A stretch of 64,000 bases of DNA, taken from positions 1-64,000 of the IMG/VR virus record IMGVR_UViG_3300003543_000059; one strand, given 5' to 3'. The position numbers were made by a program, and so were the translations under genes. This document shows positions 2,558-39,948 of the stretch, one piece after another. Every line of letters starts with the position of its first letter. Position 1 is the stretch's first letter. The notes under the pieces were generated by a model. It made no database searches. It had not been told where the DNA came from and saw only the letters and a list, made by a program, of their open reading frames with translations. This stretch comes from a virus.

Positions 2558-2583
2558 AAAGAAAAGGCTCCGTTAAGAGCCTT
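2558..2583 (-). terminator. Rho-independent terminator
   Basis: AAGGCTC-ttaacg-GAGCCTT followed by TTCTTT on the minus strand. Confidence 0.8.
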
Positions 2584-2637
2584 ATCTGAGAATTTTTACA
2601 TCCTTGTAAACATCCGTGTAAGCACGTCGTCCTTTAC
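2558..2637 (-). ncRNA. Candidate CsrA/RsmA-sequestering small RNA (CsrB/RsmZ-like)
   Basis: TATAAATA at 2650-2643; four ANGGA motifs including ACA-CGGA-UGU and UUUACA-AGGA-UGUAAA hairpins; intrinsic terminator. Confidence 0.6.
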
Positions 2638-2642
2638 ATTAG

Positions 2643-2650
2643 TATTTATA
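2643..2650 (-). promoter_or_regulatory. T4-type late promoter
   Basis: Exact TATAAATA in intergenic DNA. Confidence 0.75.
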
Positions 2651-2675: not shown

Positions 2676-3074
2676 TTAATATAATACATGATTACATGTA
2701 TGATATTTGAATTCGGCAGTTATAGTATTTGCTGTAGATTCTGCGTGTGTTAATGGGCTAAACGTTAACCCCAACAATTCAACATCTTCTACGGTAAATT
2801 CTTCTATAATATCTTCACGCCCATTCAATATGCGTATTACTATTGAGTCTAAATCACCACATAACACCCCGTTAAGTTTTTTAGATACTTTGTTGTCCAT
2901 ATCATCTTCAAACGTCACATGGATTATGCTGTTAACCCCATAATTTTTAGATGGTCGTTCTGTTGATATAACTTGAAGGGTTAATATTTCAGTGTTAATA
3001 TCTGCGTTAAAGATTATGCTATAACGATTTGATATTTTAGGTTGTATGATATTACTAAGTGTGTTATTTGTCAT
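2676..3074 (-). CDS. Short tail-tube (gp19-like) paralog
   Basis: IIQPKISNRY..LQVISTERP..VTFEDD..ITAEFKY parallels 5275..5856. Confidence 0.7.
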   Translation of the reverse strand: MTNNTLSNIIQPKISNRYSIIFNADINTEILTLQVISTERPSKNYGVNSIIHVTFEDDMDNKVSKKLNGVLCGDLDSIVIRILNGREDIIEEFTVEDVELLGLTFSPLTHAESTANTITAEFKYHTCNHVLY

Positions 3075-3712
3075 ATTTGTACCAATTGTCTTAAATGATT
3101 AGCGTGGTCTACATCGATGGTTTCAAAACTATCAAAGTATGATGCTGGAATGTGTGGGTTGTTCAAAGAACTCCCACGGTGTATAAGATATTTAAGTCTA
3201 TCTTGCACGAAGTTAACCATGCTGTCAGAACTATACCCATCTTCTAGGTCTTGTGCTTCTTTATATTGTTTCTCGTTATATTGGCGTTTAAGCAACGTTT
3301 TAGCATCATCAATGGAGTAAGATGCTTTTGGGCTTAAAATTGAATGTAGCACGTCTACGGTGACAGTATTAGCTAATAATTCACCTAATACCATATCAGT
3401 TTCAATGATTTTTTGCTTTTCAATAATCCAAGGCTTCATCATCTTAGGTGAAGCATATTTGTAATGTTCAGCACCATTGTTAAAGAAACCTATAAGCCAA
3501 TGCTTATCTTGCCATTTCTCAACATGCGAATGGCTAAAATCTCTTACGGTAGTTACTGAATTTTTAGAAGTGGATTTTAGTTCGAATGGAACCTTTTTCC
3601 CCTTCACGTTTAAGAATGCGTCAATACCACATCGTCCCTCGCTTTCATCTTTAGTAAGATTAAACAGCGTTCTCATGTAGTTCTCGCGTTTGTCGTCTTG
3701 GAATGTGTGCAT
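3071..3712 (-). CDS. PD-(D/E)xK restriction-endonuclease-like protein
   Basis: GIDA...FELKS catalytic pattern; late promoter at 3725-3718. Confidence 0.6.
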   Translation of the reverse strand: MHTFQDDKRENYMRTLFNLTKDESEGRCGIDAFLNVKGKKVPFELKSTSKNSVTTVRDFSHSHVEKWQDKHWLIGFFNNGAEHYKYASPKMMKPWIIEKQKIIETDMVLGELLANTVTVDVLHSILSPKASYSIDDAKTLLKRQYNEKQYKEAQDLEDGYSSDSMVNFVQDRLKYLIHRGSSLNNPHIPASYFDSFETIDVDHANHLRQLVQI

Positions 3713-3745
3713 GGTCTTATTTATAGACCGTGAAAACGTGGGGGG

Positions 3746-3910
3746 TTAAATGGTTATACCGTAATCGTAAGTAAGTGCGGGGTGTTCAAGCAAATTACTT
3801 TCAGTTTTGTCGTCTATTTCTGGATGGTAGTCTGCGAAAAAGGCAACAATTGCACCTTGCTCATATCCATATAAAGTTTTGGGTTCATTGTGTAATTTGT
3901 ATAAATTCAT
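3746..3910 (-). pseudogene. Truncated 54-aa member of the MNLYKxHNxP repeat family (not in ORF track)
   Basis: Hand translation MNLYKLHNEPKTLYGYEQGAIVAFFADYHPEIDDKTESNLLEHPALTYDYGITI*; ATGA overlap with the upstream paralog. Confidence 0.65.
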
Positions 3911-4689
3911 GTGTTCCCCATAATTTTTTCGAATTTAGTTCTATCTTTTTCGTTATCCAGAATTTCTTTAAAGTACCACAATGCTATTTGCCTATCACTA
4001 GCGATTGCTTTTTCCCCTAATTTGAATCTACCTTTCATGACCCTTTCTGCATAATAATATGAAAGATTAGAATGTTTTGCTATTGCTTCTTCACCTAAAG
4101 GAAATCTTTTATTATCCAATGTATCGGTGGCATACCAATAGGAAAGTTGCCCATCTGTGCTTATAGCTTTTTCTCCTTCAGGAAAGCTCCCTTTTATAAT
4201 ATCTCTAGCATACTCATATGCCCATTTCGACTCTTCTGTTATTGCTTCTTCACCTAAAAGGAATCTTTCTTCCTTCAATACCTCTTTGGCGTATTTGAAT
4301 GAATGTTCAGCACTTGTCGCTATAGCTGGCTCCCCTTCTGGGAAAGGATTTTTTAATATGTATCTAGCATACTCATACGCCCATTCGTAATCTTCAGCTA
4401 TAGCTGACTCCCCTTTCGGAAATGCTTTTCGTACAACAGAAAAAACGTATTCGTGGGTGTGGTCAGGAGATGTGATAATAGCGTTTTCCCCTTCTGGAAA
4501 AGGAGCCTCCAAAACTTCTTTAGCATATTTTAATGCGTATTCTGCATCATGAACGAACAAAGCTTTTCTTTTCTTTAATTCTTCTGGTTTATTTTTAAAT
4601 TTTTCCCAAACAAACTGGGGGGCTTTCATCAAAGCCACTTGATAATTCAACAAGGTAGTTGGGTTGTTATGTAATTTGTATAAATTCAT
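3907..4689 (-). CDS. Helical-repeat protein, ~24-aa FPEGExAIA repeats (about 7)
   Basis: Repeats visible in translation; MNLYKLHNNP N-terminus. Confidence 0.85.
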   Translation of the reverse strand: MNLYKLHNNPTTLLNYQVALMKAPQFVWEKFKNKPEELKKRKALFVHDAEYALKYAKEVLEAPFPEGENAIITSPDHTHEYVFSVVRKAFPKGESAIAEDYEWAYEYARYILKNPFPEGEPAIATSAEHSFKYAKEVLKEERFLLGEEAITEESKWAYEYARDIIKGSFPEGEKAISTDGQLSYWYATDTLDNKRFPLGEEAIAKHSNLSYYYAERVMKGRFKLGEKAIASDRQIALWYFKEILDNEKDRTKFEKIMGNT

Positions 4690-5198
4690 AATAGGTCAAA
4701 ATACTCCGCATATTTATCCCACCGTTCTACGTCTTTTTTGATAGTGGCTTCGCCTTTAGGAAATCGAGCGTTCAATATGTTTATAGCGTAATTGTATGCG
4801 TATGTAGAATGAAACGCAATAGCCTCTTCACCCTCTGGGAATGGTTTACCTAAGAAAGCAGCATACATATACGCATATATGTTATCTTTCGCCATTATCG
4901 CCTCCCCTTTTGGGAATGCTCCCTCTAAAACATGATTAGCGTACTTGTAAGAATATTCCGCATCGGTAGCAATAGCATCTTCGCCTGATTCAAATCGCGT
5001 ATCATTTAACTCGCTGTGTGCGTAGACAAAGGATGTTTCTGCGTTTGACGTTAAAAAATCGGTATCTTTATCTACAAAATGTGGAAAATATCTTTTCCAG
5101 AATTTATTGAGTTGGGTCTGTTGTTCCACCTTTTTAAATAATTCGTCACTATGGTTTAGCAATTCTTTGGGTTCATTGTGATATTTGTATAAGTTCAT
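4686..5198 (-). CDS. Helical-repeat protein paralog (about 4 repeats)
   Basis: MNLYKYHNEPKEL N-terminus; FPxGExAIA repeats. Confidence 0.85.
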   Translation of the reverse strand: MNLYKYHNEPKELLNHSDELFKKVEQQTQLNKFWKRYFPHFVDKDTDFLTSNAETSFVYAHSELNDTRFESGEDAIATDAEYSYKYANHVLEGAFPKGEAIMAKDNIYAYMYAAFLGKPFPEGEEAIAFHSTYAYNYAINILNARFPKGEATIKKDVERWDKYAEYFDLL

Positions 5199-5213
5199 AA
5201 GTCTCTCAATGTT

Positions 5214-5251
5214 AAAACGGCTCTTAAAGTTTTCACCGTAAGAGCCGTTTT
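5214..5251. terminator. 13-bp hairpin terminator downstream of the tail tube gene
   Basis: AAAACGGCTCTTA / TAAGAGCCGTTTT inverted repeat. Confidence 0.75.
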
Positions 5252-5274
5252 CCGTTTAGCAAAAACGTTGTTAA

Positions 5275-5856
5275 TTAAACCCCAGCACCGCCAGTAGCTA
5301 ATCCAGTGTCATCGAATGTAACACCAACTTGTCTTGCGTGGTCATAACGAATAGTTAATGTGATTGTAACTGCTTCAGAAGAAGAGTAATCTAAATCACC
5401 GTAATCAACGTTTTGTAACCATGAACCTTCCAATATCCATCTTTCGATTTCTTGGTCGTTACCATCTAAATGTTGGATAACTGTAGCGAATTTGTAAAGA
5501 CTTGCTTGCTTTTGAGAAGCTAAGTATTGTCCAGCCGCACCAATCAATAACTGTTGGTTATCTTGTTGTTCTTGTATAACTTGTGTAGCTTTACCAGTAA
5601 CGTCATCTTCAACAACTAATGTAACAGGTTCAAAGGTGTGTTTACCAGCAATCCAAACTTTAGAGTTGTAACGGTTTAATTCAACTTCTTCAAAAGAAAG
5701 TTTAGGACGTTCAACAGTAGTAGCTTGTAATGATAATGGAATACCAGTTGGGCTATTCCCAATGTTTTGAAATTCCACACGCCATTTGTGCTTTTGTTTT
5801 GGTTGTAGGATACCTTGACCTATTTCTGGGATTCCTATATCTTGTATTGTACTCAT
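5275..5856 (-). CDS. gp19: Tail tube protein
   Basis: ILQPKQKHKWRV..RP..YNSKVWIAGKHTFEP..DYGDLDY..IRYD; RBS GGAG; late promoter at 5915-5908. Confidence 0.9.
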   Translation of the reverse strand: MSTIQDIGIPEIGQGILQPKQKHKWRVEFQNIGNSPTGIPLSLQATTVERPKLSFEEVELNRYNSKVWIAGKHTFEPVTLVVEDDVTGKATQVIQEQQDNQQLLIGAAGQYLASQKQASLYKFATVIQHLDGNDQEIERWILEGSWLQNVDYGDLDYSSSEAVTITLTIRYDHARQVGVTFDDTGLATGGAGV

Positions 5857-7697: not shown

Positions 7698-8107
7698 AAA
7701 GTCCACAACATTTATCTGCTATAGAGCTTAAAGAGTGGAGCTATACTGTTAGAGACAACAATACAGGTCAATGGATTCCGAAGCGTTTAGAGCCTTACTA
7801 CGGTATAAGACTGATTCATCGATGCAAACTTGCATGGAAAGTGTTTACGGGTGAGTATGATGCTTTAGATTGGCTAAAAGATATTAAAAAGCCGATAGTT
7901 CAGAATGCGCCAAAAATAAATGACAAATTAGAAGTTCATTCAGAAAAATTCAAAGCCAGATATATCAATTACATGATTAAACGTGGATTGAATTATTACA
8001 TGGCTGAAGATGATTACAAGAGTTTATTATGTAATTATCATAAAGGTGATTCAGACAACCCTGAAATCACCGCAGCAGAAATGTTAAGCTACTACGACAA
8101 CGATTGA
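7694..8107 (+). CDS. Hypothetical protein
   Basis: ATGA overlap with the upstream gene. Confidence 0.65.
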   Translation: MKSPQHLSAIELKEWSYTVRDNNTGQWIPKRLEPYYGIRLIHRCKLAWKVFTGEYDALDWLKDIKKPIVQNAPKINDKLEVHSEKFKARYINYMIKRGLNYYMAEDDYKSLLCNYHKGDSDNPEITAAEMLSYYDND

Positions 8108-9936
8108 TAAATAAATCGCATTTTTCCGCAATCATAAATTTTTTGTATATTATGATTCAACATATTGTCACTTTCTGATAATGTTGAATCATAATTAGGT
8201 AAATATTTTAATCCTGTGGTGTGCCTAAAGTTGAATTTGTGGCTTCTTGTTTGACCAAATATATAGCTATAATCTGGTGGGATAATTTTATCCAATACCC
8301 ATCCGGTTTGGTGGTATAAATTACCAGTACTCCATCGTAAATCAGCAAAAGATATAATTTCTGAAGGCTGATAATCATTAATAAACCGTTTAAGTAGCTT
8401 AGAAAATCCACCAGCAATTTTACATGAAGTGGCATATCTGACTAATTCAAAAACATTATCAGCTCGTTTAGCAAATGACATACACGCTACTACATTGTTA
8501 TCATGGTACAACCCTATATCTATTGATGTGTTAGTAGACCCTTGTATATGATTAAGATTATAGAACTCTTTCTTAATATTTTTATCAACCATATCTATTT
8601 GACATTTTCTAGCGTATATTGCTGGTCTATCGTCAACACCTAATAATGATTTGAGTTTTGCTTTAACTAAATTACTATTATTAATCCATTCGTCTTCGAA
8701 AACTGTTATAAGTTCTACGTCATTATTTACACACATTTTAAGTTTATCTGCATGGTATGTATTACCTAATATCAAAGAATTATGCCAAAATAAACCACAA
8801 TATTCTATAGCTATTTTCTTTGATGGTATATAGATGTCCAACTCTTTTGGGGGAATGATAGAGCGTGTGTTCGCTATGACTTCACACGAAACAATGGATT
8901 TGACGAAATTGAATATTTCTTTTTCCGCCATAGACTGTTGAAAATTTTGTGTTTCGATTCCGAAGTTGTGTAAGTGTCTAGCTAATACACCACATGAAAC
9001 ATTAATTTCATTAGATATTTGCGTTAAAGTTTTTTCTAATACTACATGTTCGTTATATAACCAATCTTTGTTTGTTATTTTTTCATATGAATCATCAGAA
9101 ATGTGGGTTTGGTTTTTGTGTTTTCTGTTATATAATGTTAAAGCCTTGTCTGTTTTATATTTTATCACTTCTGGTCTATGGCTTGGGTGTATCCAACCAT
9201 TCTCATATAATGCTTTCATGGTTTCGGCTCTTAACGCTTTACTCTCGTTCGACATATAAAGTTCTTGGTCTAATAAAGTTTGGCGAATTTTGTCCCTAGT
9301 TTCTTCTGAAGTTTCATTCCCTATATTCCAATGAACAAGTTTTCCTGAAGCATATAATTCTGTTCTTATCGAAGATAAACGGTTTTTGAACTCTTGGGTG
9401 TGCGATACGCCTTTATTCCAAGCTGGATAATTGCCTTCTTTTTTTGTGATTGATTGTTTTTGTGCAGATTTATCATATATCGACATTCCATCTACGTCTT
9501 TTTCTTTCATAGTTTTAGCAGATTTCACAGCAGCATCTTGAGCAATAGATGTTCCAGTTTCGGGGTTTATGGTTTTTTTAGTTTTAGACTGTTTAATACC
9601 ATTACGTTTTGCTAAGGTTAATCCCGATTTGTCTTTACTAGCTGAACGACATACCAATGAGCAAAATTGAATTCTTACCCCATCTTTATTAATTTTAATG
9701 TTAGTGGGTTTAGAACAATGTGGACATTTGACTTGTTCAAAAACATCATTTTGAACATACCACAATCTAACTGCTAATTTAGGGTCATTGTTTATAAAAC
9801 TGGTTTCAGACCTAAGAAGTGTTCCTAAGTGCGTACCTTCTTTACATTTTGAACTTGGTCGTTTAACCGTGGGGTCATTAAACAACTCTTTTAAATCTTG
9901 TGAATACATATCATTAACCATAAAAAAACCTATCAT
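8092..9936 (-). mobile_element. Free-standing homing-endonuclease-like gene (Hef-like PD-(D/E)xK plus C-terminal Mom/GNAT-like domain)
   Basis: CPHC Zn finger, NUMOD-like WNKG, ELDIYIP..AIEYCGLFWH, YARKC, ISFADLRWSTGNLY..IYDCG; lies next to the sheath gene. Confidence 0.75.
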
Positions 9937-10030: not shown

Positions 10031-12103
10031 TTAAATATCGGTTCCAGTGTTAACAATACGAATTGGTATATAAATAAATTCAGCAGCTCGGACTGGTTTT
10101 AATGCTACGTCAATGTAAAGCTCATTACGGTCGATACGGTCTGGAGTGTTGTTAGACTCGTCACAGACCGTAACAGCATCATATAACCCACGCTTAACGA
10201 TTAAATCACCTAAGAAATTATCAACCAATGCTTTAAGGTTGTCTCTTGTGATTTGGTCATTAGGCTCGAACACGAAAGATAATGTGTTTTTACGTAATTG
10301 ACGTTTGATGTATTTCATTAAACGGGAAACGTTAACTCTGTCTAATGCAGAAGCATCAGGAGCAGAGGTTTTTTGACCCCAAACAATAATACCACGACCA
10401 GGGAAAAATACGATTGGATTTATATTAGTAAAATATTTATATAAATCATCACGTTGCCCTTGGTTAAGGTGTAACTGTTCGAAAGTTGTAGCAGTACCTA
10501 ATTGACCTGAAACATATCCAAGGTCAGAAACAGCAGTTACTAAACCACGTCTTGTACCAGCAGGAGCGAACCACAATTCGGAAGCTTCATCACTGAAAGC
10601 GTAAGTTCTAATTGCTGTACTTGAAGCAGGTACCATCACGTTTTTACCATCTAAGTTAGATGCTAATTGGTGTGGGTAGTAATAAGCAACATGAGTAGAT
10701 GTTTGTCTACCTGTTGTATTAGACCATGCAACAATTTCAGAAGCGTTCATATTGAAAGGGACATCACCAATAACAAAAGCTTCTTCTTGAATGTCAACAG
10801 AAAGTGCGATTAATTCATCAACAACTTCGTGATAACCAGGACATAAGATTAAGTTATATTCAAAATTTTCTGAACGGATACCTTCGTTGCTGTTGATAGT
10901 AGCTTGAAGTGCTGTTGTAATAGCAACACGTCTAGCAGCATCGTTAGCACCTAAGCTGATACCGTTTTTAAATTCTTTAGTGTATTGGAAATCATCAGCA
11001 GTCGCAATGAATAAGTTTCCACTTTCCGCTGGTAAAAATTCATCTAAGATGAAAGCACCTAATAAGTTAGCTATCCAATCAGCTACCATACCATCAAAAC
11101 CAATGTAAGTTGTTGTAGCAGGTTGGTCATAACCATTAGCATAAACATCTAATGGTGCTGAAGTAACATCATCATAAAATTCGTCTTCTAATGTGCTGAA
11201 TGAGAATGATTTGAACAAATCGATAGATGATTCGTTAGCTAATGAAATAAGCTCTGAACCAGTTACCGTTTCTTTGAATAATACTGTTCCGTCAACCGCT
11301 GGTTCAATAGCAACAAAACCAGGTAAAGCAGCAAATAATGGTGTTGGACTAACACCATCAGCTAATAACACTGTTGATGTGAAACCAGCAGAAAGAGCTG
11401 AAATTCTAATATTACCGATAGCAATTGAAGCACTACCGCCAACTAAAATGATATTCATTAAGTTTATAACATCATCATAAGTTTCGCCACCAACTAAAGT
11501 AATGCTGAAAGTTGTGAAACCAGTATTATCAATATCAGCTTGAAAATCGTATGTGCCAGCAGGAACAGTTGTAGGTGCTGTGCCAATGATAGGGTTAAGA
11601 TAGTTAACATCTTGATAACCGGAGCTTGAATCACCAGGGATATAGCCGTTAACAAGATTGTATTCGTTGATGAATTCTTGAGACAAATTTTCCAGCAATA
11701 TAGAGGTTTCCTGAACCTTTGCATTCCACATTGCACGAACGTCTAATAAATCATCGTTTAAGTTTACGTTTGCTCTTATAACAAATGCTCTGTCACCTAT
11801 ACCTAAGTAGTTGTTCAAAGCGAATAAACCATATTCGTTTCTAGCATCACCGTGGAACTGGTTGCCGGAAGTGTCTTCCAAGAAGTTGGGTAAGCCATAA
11901 AGGTCTAAACTTTGTTTTCTTGAGGTTACTGTACGAATAACATCGTATTCTTCAGTACCGACCGCTGGTGTTATACCATCAGTTTGGAGCTTTTCATCTT
12001 CCGTTGCAATGAAAAACAGGGGAACGGTGGATGCGGATACTGGGATGAAAAACGATTCATCTGTTATGGTAACCGATACACCAGGGCTAATTAATGATGC
12101 CAT
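10031..12103 (-). CDS. gp18: Contractile tail sheath protein
   Basis: SLISPGVSV, WFAPAGTRRG, INPIV..WGQKT..ALDRVNVSRL, FEPND, CDESNNTP, KPVRAAEFIYI; late promoter at 12208-12201. Confidence 0.97.
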   Translation of the reverse strand: MASLISPGVSVTITDESFFIPVSASTVPLFFIATEDEKLQTDGITPAVGTEEYDVIRTVTSRKQSLDLYGLPNFLEDTSGNQFHGDARNEYGLFALNNYLGIGDRAFVIRANVNLNDDLLDVRAMWNAKVQETSILLENLSQEFINEYNLVNGYIPGDSSSGYQDVNYLNPIIGTAPTTVPAGTYDFQADIDNTGFTTFSITLVGGETYDDVINLMNIILVGGSASIAIGNIRISALSAGFTSTVLLADGVSPTPLFAALPGFVAIEPAVDGTVLFKETVTGSELISLANESSIDLFKSFSFSTLEDEFYDDVTSAPLDVYANGYDQPATTTYIGFDGMVADWIANLLGAFILDEFLPAESGNLFIATADDFQYTKEFKNGISLGANDAARRVAITTALQATINSNEGIRSENFEYNLILCPGYHEVVDELIALSVDIQEEAFVIGDVPFNMNASEIVAWSNTTGRQTSTHVAYYYPHQLASNLDGKNVMVPASSTAIRTYAFSDEASELWFAPAGTRRGLVTAVSDLGYVSGQLGTATTFEQLHLNQGQRDDLYKYFTNINPIVFFPGRGIIVWGQKTSAPDASALDRVNVSRLMKYIKRQLRKNTLSFVFEPNDQITRDNLKALVDNFLGDLIVKRGLYDAVTVCDESNNTPDRIDRNELYIDVALKPVRAAEFIYIPIRIVNTGTDI

Positions 12104-32762: not shown

Positions 32763-32795
32763 TTACAATCCACTCATGCGTTTATAAATAAAGGC

Positions 32796-33221
32796 ATGAG
32801 TAAAGCTATAGACAACGCATTTGACATAGAACCATATGACCCAGAATCAACTGAATTGATTGATTATGCTGAGATGGCAAACTTGCCTTCTGTAAATGTA
32901 ATTCACCCCGATTATGATATAAAAGATTCTGAAATTGAAGACCAATTTCAAGAAGTTTATGATAAAGCTATGACTGCATTTGACACTCAGGTTGATGCTA
33001 CTGAAGATATTGAGGGTAAATATCTCGCTCGTAATTCTGAAGTTGCCAACCAACTACTAACAACAGCACTTCAAGCTGCCAAAGAAAAAGCCAGTCTTAA
33101 ACAACATTCCGACCATCTTAAAATCAAAAAAGACATTAAAGGCAATACTACCAACATTCAAAACAATGTCATGATGGACAGAAATGAACTGTTGAAGATG
33201 ATGAAAGGTGATATTGAGTAA
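32796..33221 (+). CDS. terS: Terminase small subunit (gp16-like)
   Basis: Helical core; TTNIQNNVMMDRNELLKM C-terminus; upstream of TerL; TATAAATA 32783-32790. Confidence 0.8.
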   Translation: MSKAIDNAFDIEPYDPESTELIDYAEMANLPSVNVIHPDYDIKDSEIEDQFQEVYDKAMTAFDTQVDATEDIEGKYLARNSEVANQLLTTALQAAKEKASLKQHSDHLKIKKDIKGNTTNIQNNVMMDRNELLKMMKGDIE

Positions 33222-38200: not shown

Positions 38201-38257
38201 TCTAATGATGTATATGACGAGAATGGTGTTGATGCGGCAATGCCAATAGTTTTTTAA
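35171..38257 (+). CDS. terL: Terminase large subunit C-fragment: split-intein C part (35171-35644), ATPase/nuclease, internal intein
   Basis: CADEH..MYDI..NGILSHN/TT; FADELAF, ASTPNG, QEH, GVDPS, DDCI. Confidence 0.92.
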   Translation: MNGIMNFSHLKEKILKWCLSEEAVIYGELYKQYQTNKVERYQQNKLKFVEESEPNDLFIKTPSGISPIKRLLKTVEYDVYRITLENELFLECADEHLLIGEYGDAIFAKDSKGTTLRTIKGPSAVVSVEPLNRSESMYDIEIDGDDHTYHTNGILSHNTTCAAAFFLWYATFEEHKTVLIVSNKESNATEFIHRLQVMYEYLPKWLKAGVDGEWNKKSVGFDNGCRVISRATSDSSARGLSLSIVFADELAFVRDNIQDEFWAALSPTLSCVTGDTLVLTKNGYEKIEDFHKGKGVGDYFEIDGVEVYGKEGIEPLSHGYVSPESDTLIIETQRGFMIEVTHNHPLYALTENPEMVKAKNLTTANYLRIDYGMNHFGKKSLDSDIAYMLGGYIAEGWSSHFKNAKGERVNSAIYIANLDSDFREVFYRNGFSDDLNQSHKIRKFGVDVCRFWENEYGINFTQKCYDKEIPHYIMQSNSKTIGMFLRGLYDGDGSITVNRGINLTSTSRKLIQQVQILLMNFGILTTLVKNDAEKIMIRERESCRLLPQGKPIQSLRDSWGLNISRSNAGLFQRCVGFNIKYKGDKLEECIKKYPQDDYKQKVIPFDIIKNVISNIVESSGKTKKWFRDKGCRLDKLFNKSTERTCTLRWLEVFYKAVRHMDCVAQYHNIFNELLGYDCIWDKIKTITPSTNKTYDFTVPKTHTFLQNGILGSNTGGSCIVASTPNGDMNLFAQLARASEAKTNEFVFKKYIWEDVPERDEAWKKSEIMRIGEEKFLQEHLCHFLSSEAMLISSMVLSTIKPKQHVRELKEFKLWDSFSPEKSYIVGVDPSTGIDNDFSVIEVFEFPTMIQVGEFRSNTCNTTQLYQALKGILIMMERVGCQIFYSSENNGIGEGLLVCIENDENAPEHAEFVTQANSKREGFATTNKSKIKACIKLREMFESGKIEIKSEHLLFELKNFIRTKASYEAQPGATDDCISAVLIVIRILEEIILYDDRAYAMMEESLGEDYFSNDVYDENGVDAAMPIVF
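35981..37309 (+). mobile_element. Contiguous intein with LAGLIDADG endonuclease (443 aa)
   Basis: CVTGDT..THNH..LGGYIAEG..LRGLYDGDG..TYDFTV..NGILGSN/T; excision restores SPTLS-TGGS. Confidence 0.92.
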
Positions 38258-39948
38258 TGATGTATGACAAAAAATTGAAGGAAATTGGGTACCATTTATC
38301 GAATGGTGGTAATATAGGAAATTACTGGCGTAATGTAAAATTGAAAGAATTATTACTAAAAGAAACAGATTTTTTAGTAGGTGTCAATACTAACATTGAG
38401 CGAATGTATTATATTATTAATGATTTAAGAGAACAACAACGATGCGTTTGCTCCAAATTAACTAGTGTTAAACGAGTAAAGGGGTATTATATAGTTCAAT
38501 CGTGTTCTAGGCATTGCGCTATGTCTGTGATTGGTAATGATGGTTTAACTGGTTATGAGAGAATAGGTAAAAAGACTAAAGATGCAATGGAAGTTGTAGG
38601 AGATGATGGACTAACAGGTTATGAACGTAATTCGGTTAAAATATCTAAAACCTTAAATAGTGTTCAGGAATCGGGAAAGACTAGAGGACAAGAATTGGGG
38701 GAATTGAGTGCTATAGCTCGAACTGTTGTTGATGTTAGCAGTGGGTTAACTATTAACCAAAAAAATGGTAAAAAAGTTTCGAAAACATTAATGGCTATTC
38801 AACCTTCTGGAAAAACTAGAGGGAAAGAATTGGGTGAGTTGGCTAGAAAAGTAAGAATAGTGGAAGATGATAATGGGTTGAACGGGTATCAACGGTCAGC
38901 TTTAATGATGTCAAAAACAGTTAAAAAACAAAAATACTATGAGCATAAAGATAAAATAGAATCATTGGGTTTCACCGTTCTCAGTAGTTTAAGTGAATAT
39001 TATAAAGATGTATATTTTAGATATAAATGTAATACGTGTAACCAACAAAACTACACACGATACAGAAATTTGAGATGTTTAAAATGTAATCCTTACAACA
39101 AATCTATAGCGGAACAAGAAATTATAGATTATTGTGATTCATACGTTTTAGTTAAATCTAACGCTAGAAATATTATATCACCATTAGAACTTGATGTGTA
39201 TGTGGAAAGTTTGAATCTTGCCATTGAATATAATGGATTATTCTGGCATAATCACAATAAACTTGAAAACAAAAATTACCATCTCAATAAAACTGAATTA
39301 TGTGAAGCTAAAGGAATTCATCTTCTTCATATTTTTGAAAATGAATGGCTCGACCCCACAAAACAAAATATTTGGAAGTCAATCATATCAAATAAATTAG
39401 GTCATTCCACACGATTATACGCTCGGAACTGCGGGATAAGAACAGTATCAAGCGTTGAAAAGTGTGAGTTCTTAAAAGCTAATCATCTTCAAGGTGATTG
39501 CCCTTCATCTGTTAATGTTGGGTTATATCATAATGATGAATTGGTTTCATTGATGACCTTTGGGAAATCAAGGTTTAGTAAAAAATATGATTGGGAGTTG
39601 TTACGTTTTTGTAATACATTAAATGTTAGTGTTGTTGGTGGAGCATCACGTTTGTTGAAACGTTTTCGAGCGTTAAACGATGGCTCAATCGTTTCTTACG
39701 CTGATAAACGTAGAAGCAATGGCAATCTATACAAACAACTAGGGTTCAGTCATAGCCATGATTCTAAGCCAAATTACTGGTATTTTAAAAGCGGTGATAT
39801 AATGTTAGAATCTAGAGTCAAATATCAAAAACATAAATTATCAAAAATTTTAAAATATTTTGATTCTGATTTGTCAGAAAGTGATAATATGAATAATAAC
39901 GGATACCATAAAATTTATGATTGCGGTAATCAAGTTTGGGTGTTATGA
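38257..39948 (+). mobile_element. Free-standing Hef-like endonuclease with Mom/GNAT-like domain, paralog of 8092..9936
   Basis: ELDVY..AIEYNGLFWH, YARNC, VSYADKRRSNGNLY, IYDCG; GLTGYER repeats. Confidence 0.75.

Follow-up and report, generated by a model that had tools for sequence, protein, structure and literature searches.

A conserved GGA-loop RNA module beside the tail-tube paralog of uncultured jumbo phages, a candidate late decoy for host CsrA

The intergenic locus and its predicted late transcript

The stretch of DNA analysed here, referred to as the window, comprises the first 64,000 nt of a viral IMG/VR record of 77.9 kb with 35% GC (IMGVR_UViG_3300003543_000059); at this length the record is estimated to be only 25% complete and is therefore a fragment of the genome of a jumbo-size phage. 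On the minus strand, a gap of 133 nt that contains no ORF (2543-2675) lies between an ORF of 132 aa on its upstream flank (2676-3074) and an ORF of 499 aa (1043-2542), which encodes a paralog of the tail-tube family (phrog_4542, tail tube protein, E = 3.7e-17) and begins with an ATG at 2542-2540 preceded by an AAGG ribosome-binding site at 2551-2548. The major tail-tube gene, encoding 193 aa, is situated farther upstream on the same strand (5275-5856), and about 2.7 kb of accessory genes separate it here from the gap, with five small ORFs of 170, 260, 54, 213, and 132 aa, none of which has an informative family match, occupying 2676-5198 on the minus strand. Past the stop of the tube gene (5275), at approximately 5213-5254 of the minus strand, a long hairpin followed by a U-run is found, with one AACGGAA before it, and its 5' arm, GGCUCUUA, is shared with the terminator located in the gap (2583-2576); from its sequence, the hairpin looks like a recombination scar left by the insertion of the accessory genes. 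The gene immediately upstream of the gap is not the same in the relatives L006, L007, L008, and L009, so the junction is a hot spot of gene exchange. Large homing-endonuclease genes (phrog_3339) are also present at two places in the window, between the sheath and tube genes (8092-9936, minus strand) and directly 3' of the terminase ORF (38257-39948, plus strand).

The T4-type late promoter motif TATAAATA is present in the gap at 2650-2643 of the minus strand, inside a block, TTGCACACTTTATAAATA, that is kept in close relatives, and the motif itself is invariant in an alignment across six relatives. It appears 20 times in the 64-kb window against 11 expected, a number reached in 0 of 100 shuffles, and 26 times in the 78-kb record, where about 22 copies are intergenic and upstream of ORFs, including those of the sheath (10031-12103) and tube genes. 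Judging from this distribution, TATAAATA is a credible late promoter in the phage. Transcription from T4 late promoters starts 5 nt past the motif, and this geometry, together with the sequence, places the predicted start at G2637 of the minus strand. The RNA whose transcription and ends we infer in this way should be about 75-80 nt long, extending from G2637 to the U-tract at 2565-2558, and, with a late promoter of its own, would therefore be expected late in infection. At two other positions in the window, exactly 5 nt separate TATAAATA from a downstream ATG (3718-3725, minus strand, with ORF 3071-3712; 32783-32790, plus strand, with ORF 32796-33221), and the same spacing is seen at the paralog genes of L011 and L029; under the T4 geometry such transcripts would begin at the A of the ATG, so some late genes may be leaderless. 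The 5' end of the predicted transcript contains a palindrome, TGTAAA-N10-CTTACA (2617-2638, minus strand), whose half-sites resemble those of the GacA/UvrY box that drives host csrB/rsm genes, but they are spaced by 10 nt instead of 6 and are located within the transcript, and the palindrome is probably a by-product of the UACA/ANGGA motifs.

Four A-N-GGA motifs start at 2634, 2617, 2605, and 2573 of the minus strand. Site 1, AAGGAC (2634-2629), is near the 5' end and would either remain unpaired or occupy the loop of a GUAA(R)/(Y)UUAC hairpin. Site 2, AC[ACGGAU]GU (2619-2610), can fold into an A-N-GGA-X loop with a C-G closing pair and a very short stem, and site 3, UUUAC[AAGGAU]GUAAA (2610-2595), a hexaloop on a 5-bp stem, agrees with the CsrA SELEX consensus RUACARGGAUGU (PMC4347634) at 11 of 12 positions. 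The fourth GGA (2571-2569) belongs to an intrinsic terminator (2583-2558, minus strand) composed of an 8-bp stem with a 4-nt loop (2583-2564) and the U-tract UUUUCUUU, which runs to 2558. This terminator is the only convincing one in 13 kb and among the very few canonical ones in the record; its end is 15 nt from the ATG of the paralog, and no promoter motif is found between the two in the window. The promoter motif, the four ANGGA motifs in about 80 nt, the two loop sequences ACA-CGGA-UGU and UUUACA-AGGA-UGUAAA, the terminator, and the start of a tube-family gene about 15 nt past it had all been pointed out in an earlier note on this DNA, and each was located as described at the above positions of the minus strand.

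The four ANGGA motifs in 70 nt constitute a cluster unique within the 64 kb. Such a cluster arises in 40% of Markov-simulated windows, so the GGA count alone is not significant, and it is conservation that makes the module real. A CANGGAUG doublet within 30 nt is rarer than the four-motif cluster, being found in 1.3% of the Markov simulations, and the 11-mer TACANGGATGT occurs only once in 78 kb. The predicted minimum-energy fold of the window RNA does not display the GGA loops described in the earlier note and leaves the GGAs partly buried. Freeing the three 5' GGAs is predicted to cost 5.6 kcal/mol in the window RNA and 2.5 kcal/mol in those of L008 and L009, and the opening cost is small beside the energy of nanomolar protein binding.

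Conservation of the module in related phages

Proteins 43-92% identical to the 499-aa paralog come from metagenomes only. About 17 lineages carry the module upstream of the paralog's ortholog, and they form one deep clade with paralog identity of 33-92% and GC content of 28-47%. In the protein tree of the paralog, 19 of 19 array loci fall into one group of 26 (SH-aLRT 99), as against 0 of 10 in the sister group, and paths through the tree are up to about 3 substitutions per site long. The region had no megablast hit among cultured phages; protein searches reach only distant cultured jumbo phages (XacN1, RsoM2USA, CM1, RAS14, Xoo-sp13, Phosso, PA5oct, and Atu_ph07), and the tube-gene junctions of these phages, including XacN1, RsoM2USA, PA5oct, and Atu_ph07, have a terminator only and no array. 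A scan of genome contigs yielded no host-linked relative, and four DNA sequencing runs added only an L006-type variant, with no new covariation. A search of sequencing runs revealed no RNA run with this sequence.

In the close clade (L006/L007, L012, L008, and L009), the sequence is conserved from about 25 nt upstream of TATAAATA through the ATG of the paralog, and the gene upstream varies by contig. Three A(N)GGA sites are invariant in this clade, and the variable positions are the N and X of the A-N-GGA-X loops. The A(N)GGA of site 1 is retained in all six close relatives as AAGGA, AGGGA, or AUGGA; at site 2 the GGA and the closing C-G are invariant and N and X vary (C/U and U/A); and at site 3 N and X also differ between relatives. 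The GGA in the terminator is absent in L006, L008, and L009, so three sites are conserved, and the count of four sites given in the earlier note holds for the window but does not extend to these relatives. L011, whose paralog shows 43% identity, has six GGAs, including UUUAU[AAGGAU]AUAAA, in which the C-G pair of the site 3 stem is replaced by a compensatory U-A, and it carries a second TATAAATA past the terminator. RNAalifold detected little covariation among the six close relatives because the clade varies little and the terminator of L011 misaligns.

More distant relatives (33-37% identity; L013, L014, L016, L019, L027, L029, L030, L032, L034, L003/L037, L035, L043, and L056) have stems of unrelated sequence and yet share the design, so the loop motif has remained constant through complete stem turnover. 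The order in these lineages is the stop of the tube gene, one to several GGA-loop hairpins, the terminator, a late promoter, and the paralog. In 15 lineages, the module is directly preceded by the ortholog of the 193-aa tube protein of the window, with 53-72% identity. In L009, the ORF in this position (approximately 2400-2880) encodes a distantly tube-like protein, with 26% identity to the tube protein of the window, and not a tube ortholog. Three layouts can be distinguished: in most lineages the module forms the 3'UTR of the major tube gene; in L011 and L015 it stands alone between two late promoters, which fits a stand-alone RNA; and in the clade of the window it has a late promoter of its own and none after the terminator. 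The discrete late-promoter small RNA proposed in the earlier note is thus in keeping with the arrangement in the window and in L011/L015, but not with that in most relatives. Every array-bearing relative has the terminator. The arrays are 47-106 nt long and contain from one to seven A(N)GGA motifs, with only one in some lineages, and the GGAs are spaced by a median of 13 nt (interquartile range, 10-16). In L014 (3580-3605) and L032 (548-570), the loop of the terminator hairpin is itself A(N)GGAU, which makes it a candidate binding site combined with a stop signal.

In the orthologous intergenic regions, 3.76 kb in all, the motif CA.GGA[AT]G was counted 20 times (5.3 per kb), and in 455 kb elsewhere in the loci 42 times (0.09 per kb); several of the matches counted as outside are array sites with wrong boundaries. 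Of 61 array GGAs from 16 lineage representatives, 51 have A at -2 and 36 have G at +4, any base is accepted at -1, and G follows directly after GGA (+3) in only 9. The free -1 base and the scarcity of G after GGA mean that the motif is not a copy of the Shine-Dalgarno sequence. An A-N-GGA-X hexaloop on a stem of at least 3 bp is possible for 25 of the 61 array GGAs and for 35 of 2022 control GGAs (Fisher p = 5e-25). Of the 25 hairpins, 19 are closed by C-G, and at least one such hairpin exists in 15 of the 16 lineages. This register-specific test replaced a general scan for GGAs in hairpins of whatever kind, which was too permissive because about 25% of all GGAs passed it. Three other explanations of the motif were also rejected: a Shine-Dalgarno mimic, by the base composition around GGA; a target of the T4 RegB type (GGAG), by the same 9 of 61; and a GGATG restriction site, by the equal use of GGAAG and GGACG. 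The earlier note had made its proposal depend on the GGA loops being conserved in syntenic relatives, and they are indeed kept across the deep clade in the high-affinity CsrA/RsmE form. We are confident that the element is real and that 2558-2650 on the minus strand of the window represents a non-coding RNA module conserved in an uncultured clade of jumbo myophages with T4-type late promoters. The module is positioned between the major tube gene and the tube paralog.

Comparison with Csr/Rsm RNAs and other known elements

The high-affinity site of CsrA/RsmE is an ANGGAX hexaloop placed directly on a stem, in which N and X are variable and a closing C-G pair is recognised, a rule worked out on RsmZ and hcnA (Duss et al. 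2014, PMC4005645). Position by position, what is fixed and what varies in the phage arrays follows the CsrA/RsmE rules. The RNAs of Rfam clan CL00106 (RsmX/RsmY/RsmZ and CsrB/CsrC) share with the phage module their non-coding nature, several A(N)GGA motifs 10-20 nt apart, many of them in loops, and an end formed by a rho-independent terminator; with 47-106 nt and 1-7 GGAs, the module is closest in size to RsmX/Y/Z. It differs from the Csr/Rsm RNAs in that it is viral, is placed under a late promoter or in the 3'UTR of a structural gene instead of under a GacA/UvrY-dependent promoter, and has fewer sites, at which binding is predicted from sequence. In addition, E. coli CsrB, as read from the genome, mostly has CAGGAUG without an extra N, whereas the phage sites have the form CA-N-GGA-UG; the extra N thus brings them closer to the SELEX and Rsm form. 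The search with the Rfam CsrB/CsrC/RsmX/Y/Z models that the earlier note had suggested went against kinship: at E <= 10, no Csr/Rsm model matched the window region or ten relatives, and the best score was 14.7 bits for CsrB (RF00018) in L034 only (E = 6.3), compared with a gathering threshold of 71. An upstream activating box of the GacA/UvrY type with a sigma-70 promoter is also absent, the promoter being the phage late motif TATAAATA. The phage module is an analogue of the Csr/Rsm small RNAs and not a homologue.

Decoys of CsrA carried on messenger RNA are exemplified by the leader of Salmonella fimAICDHF. The 3'UTR form of the phage module resembles it in placing CsrA-type sites on an abundant messenger, but in decoys of the Salmonella type the sites belong to the 5' leader of a host mRNA, and in the phages to a 3'UTR or a separate late transcript. 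A likeness is also seen with the PeSL cassettes of T4-type phages, which consist of a stem-loop and a promoter and mediate gene shuffling (PMC2839356), in that the module is an intergenic unit of stem-loop/terminator and promoter at junctions with shuffled neighbours. PeSLs have early sigma-70 promoters and stems of the GGGG/CCCC type, lack a loop motif, and are present in many copies per genome, in hyperplastic regions (PMC2839356). The phage module, with its late promoter, its single copy in 78 kb, and its definition by loops, is unlike them and does not qualify as a PeSL. The phage-encoded CsrA proteins (PMC7366521) likewise represent interference of phages with the Csr/Rsm network, there on the protein side and here on that of RNA. 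Neither the 78-kb record nor any of 10 related records, all of them fragments, contains a gene of the CsrA family (PF02599).

A late CsrA-binding decoy and competing explanations

CsrA/RsmA is among the most widespread post-transcriptional regulators of bacteria; sponge RNAs of the host control it, as does FliW in some lineages. The reading that we prefer, with a rough probability of 45%, is that the module specifies a late RNA that would bind a host protein of the CsrA family and act as its decoy. Binding of a CsrA-family protein, taken by itself, is slightly favored, and in this reading the partner is probably CsrA and the effect probably titration, both of which we infer. Dimers of host CsrA/RsmA-family protein would dock on the GGA loops and be withheld from other RNAs, and phage messages with A-N-GGA ribosome-binding sites would be plausible beneficiaries. 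A.GGA is found at -22 to -4 of 21 of the 65 long ORFs of the record, compared with 1 of 65 control positions; at ribosome-binding sites of the AAGGA type, a CsrA-type repressor would compete with ribosomes, and a decoy would relieve that competition. The three layouts share only an abundant late GGA-loop RNA ending at a terminator, which favours a trans-acting protein binder over regulation of a single gene. The nearest cultured relatives infect Proteobacteria, so a CsrA-bearing host would be plausible.

Several points count against the decoy. The module is never found away from the tube/paralog junction, a hint of some local function, and, since the paralog is promoterless in the clade of the window, the module is also the paralog leader there. 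Only three sites are conserved in that clade and one in some lineages, the predicted fold would partly bury the GGAs (the 5.6 kcal/mol mentioned above), Rfam gave no Csr/Rsm match, and the cultured relatives have no array. Manipulation of a host regulon late in the lytic cycle, moreover, has no obvious payoff.

The constant position at the junction suggests a role in cis, in which the hairpins and the terminator would set the level of late transcription that reaches the low-copy tube paralog from the tube gene or from the module's own promoter, or would stabilise the 3' end of the tube mRNA; as a variant, a bound protein, CsrA or another, might modulate termination. In the clade of the window the module travels with the paralog and the upstream gene differs among the window, L006, and L007; the terminator is one of those few canonical ones in the record; and read-through of it would be the only visible route to transcription of the 499-aa paralog in the window, there being no promoter past the terminator in this clade. 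In most lineages, however, a late promoter does follow the terminator and makes the paralog independent of read-through, and in L011/L015 the promoters on either side make the module independent of both genes. The sequence shows no antiterminator that would pair with the 5' arm of the terminator, no GGA overlaps the ribosome-binding site of the paralog, and plain stabilising hairpins would need no A-N-GGA-X loop. We consider a role in cis unlikely overall; in the clade of the window, the leader or attenuator that the earlier note gives as its alternative keeps some likelihood because no promoter follows the terminator there.

It is rather improbable that the loops dock some other RNA-binding protein, perhaps a product of the phage clade itself, and are like CsrA sites by convergence. 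A phage-borne partner would explain why the module is restricted to one phage clade whose GC content of 28-47% points to probably diverse hosts, and the record covers only 25% of the genome and most array-bearing relatives 4-8%; csrA genes are moreover present in 1.2% of phage genomes (PMC7366521). The lack of a PF02599 gene in the records mentioned above speaks against such a partner only weakly, all of them being fragments. The motif fits the CsrA/RsmE rules, with A at -2, free N, free X, and C-G closure, and we know of no other protein with specificity for an A-N-GGA-X hexaloop. CsrA is conserved across many phyla, so diverse hosts are no argument against it. Absence of any specific ligand, the module then being a terminator-proximal cluster of hairpins in a promoter/terminator recombination cassette with GGAs as relics of ribosome-binding sites, is highly improbable. 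The junction with differing neighbours among close relatives, which begins about 25 nt upstream of TATAAATA, the arm GGCUCUUA shared by the tube-gene and array terminators, and the precedent of PeSL cassettes that shuffle genes in T4-type phages (PMC2839356) would agree with such a cassette, but PeSL stems are of the GGGG/CCCC type without a loop motif (PMC2839356), the base composition around GGA is not Shine-Dalgarno-like, and the loop motif has outlasted complete turnover of the stems over paths of about 3 substitutions per site.

If the late decoy for CsrA is retained as the preferred reading, its broadest form would be a clade-wide decoy of giant phages for CsrA/RsmA that acts through the 3'UTR of the most abundant tail mRNA or as a late small RNA and neutralises this global translational repressor at the time when structural mRNAs, many with A-N-GGA ribosome-binding sites, need full-rate translation, and it would be the first viral sponge RNA of the Csr/Rsm type; we put this form forward tentatively and regard it as somewhat doubtful. 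A literature search found phage-borne csrA genes (PMC7366521) and no phage-encoded RNA that targets or binds CsrA. The present case stands out by its deep conservation and by a strict match to the hexaloop rule. The module lends itself to direct tests, since its RNA is short and bacteria share the mode of CsrA recognition. Should CsrA not be the partner, a loop motif held constant through complete stem turnover would still mark a real, uncatalogued candidate for a protein-binding RNA. If the reading is true, phages manipulate the translation control of their hosts by means of a small RNA of about 80 nt, and the finding would add a deeply conserved RNA family to the jumbo phages and supply a compact natural decoy of CsrA as a tool.
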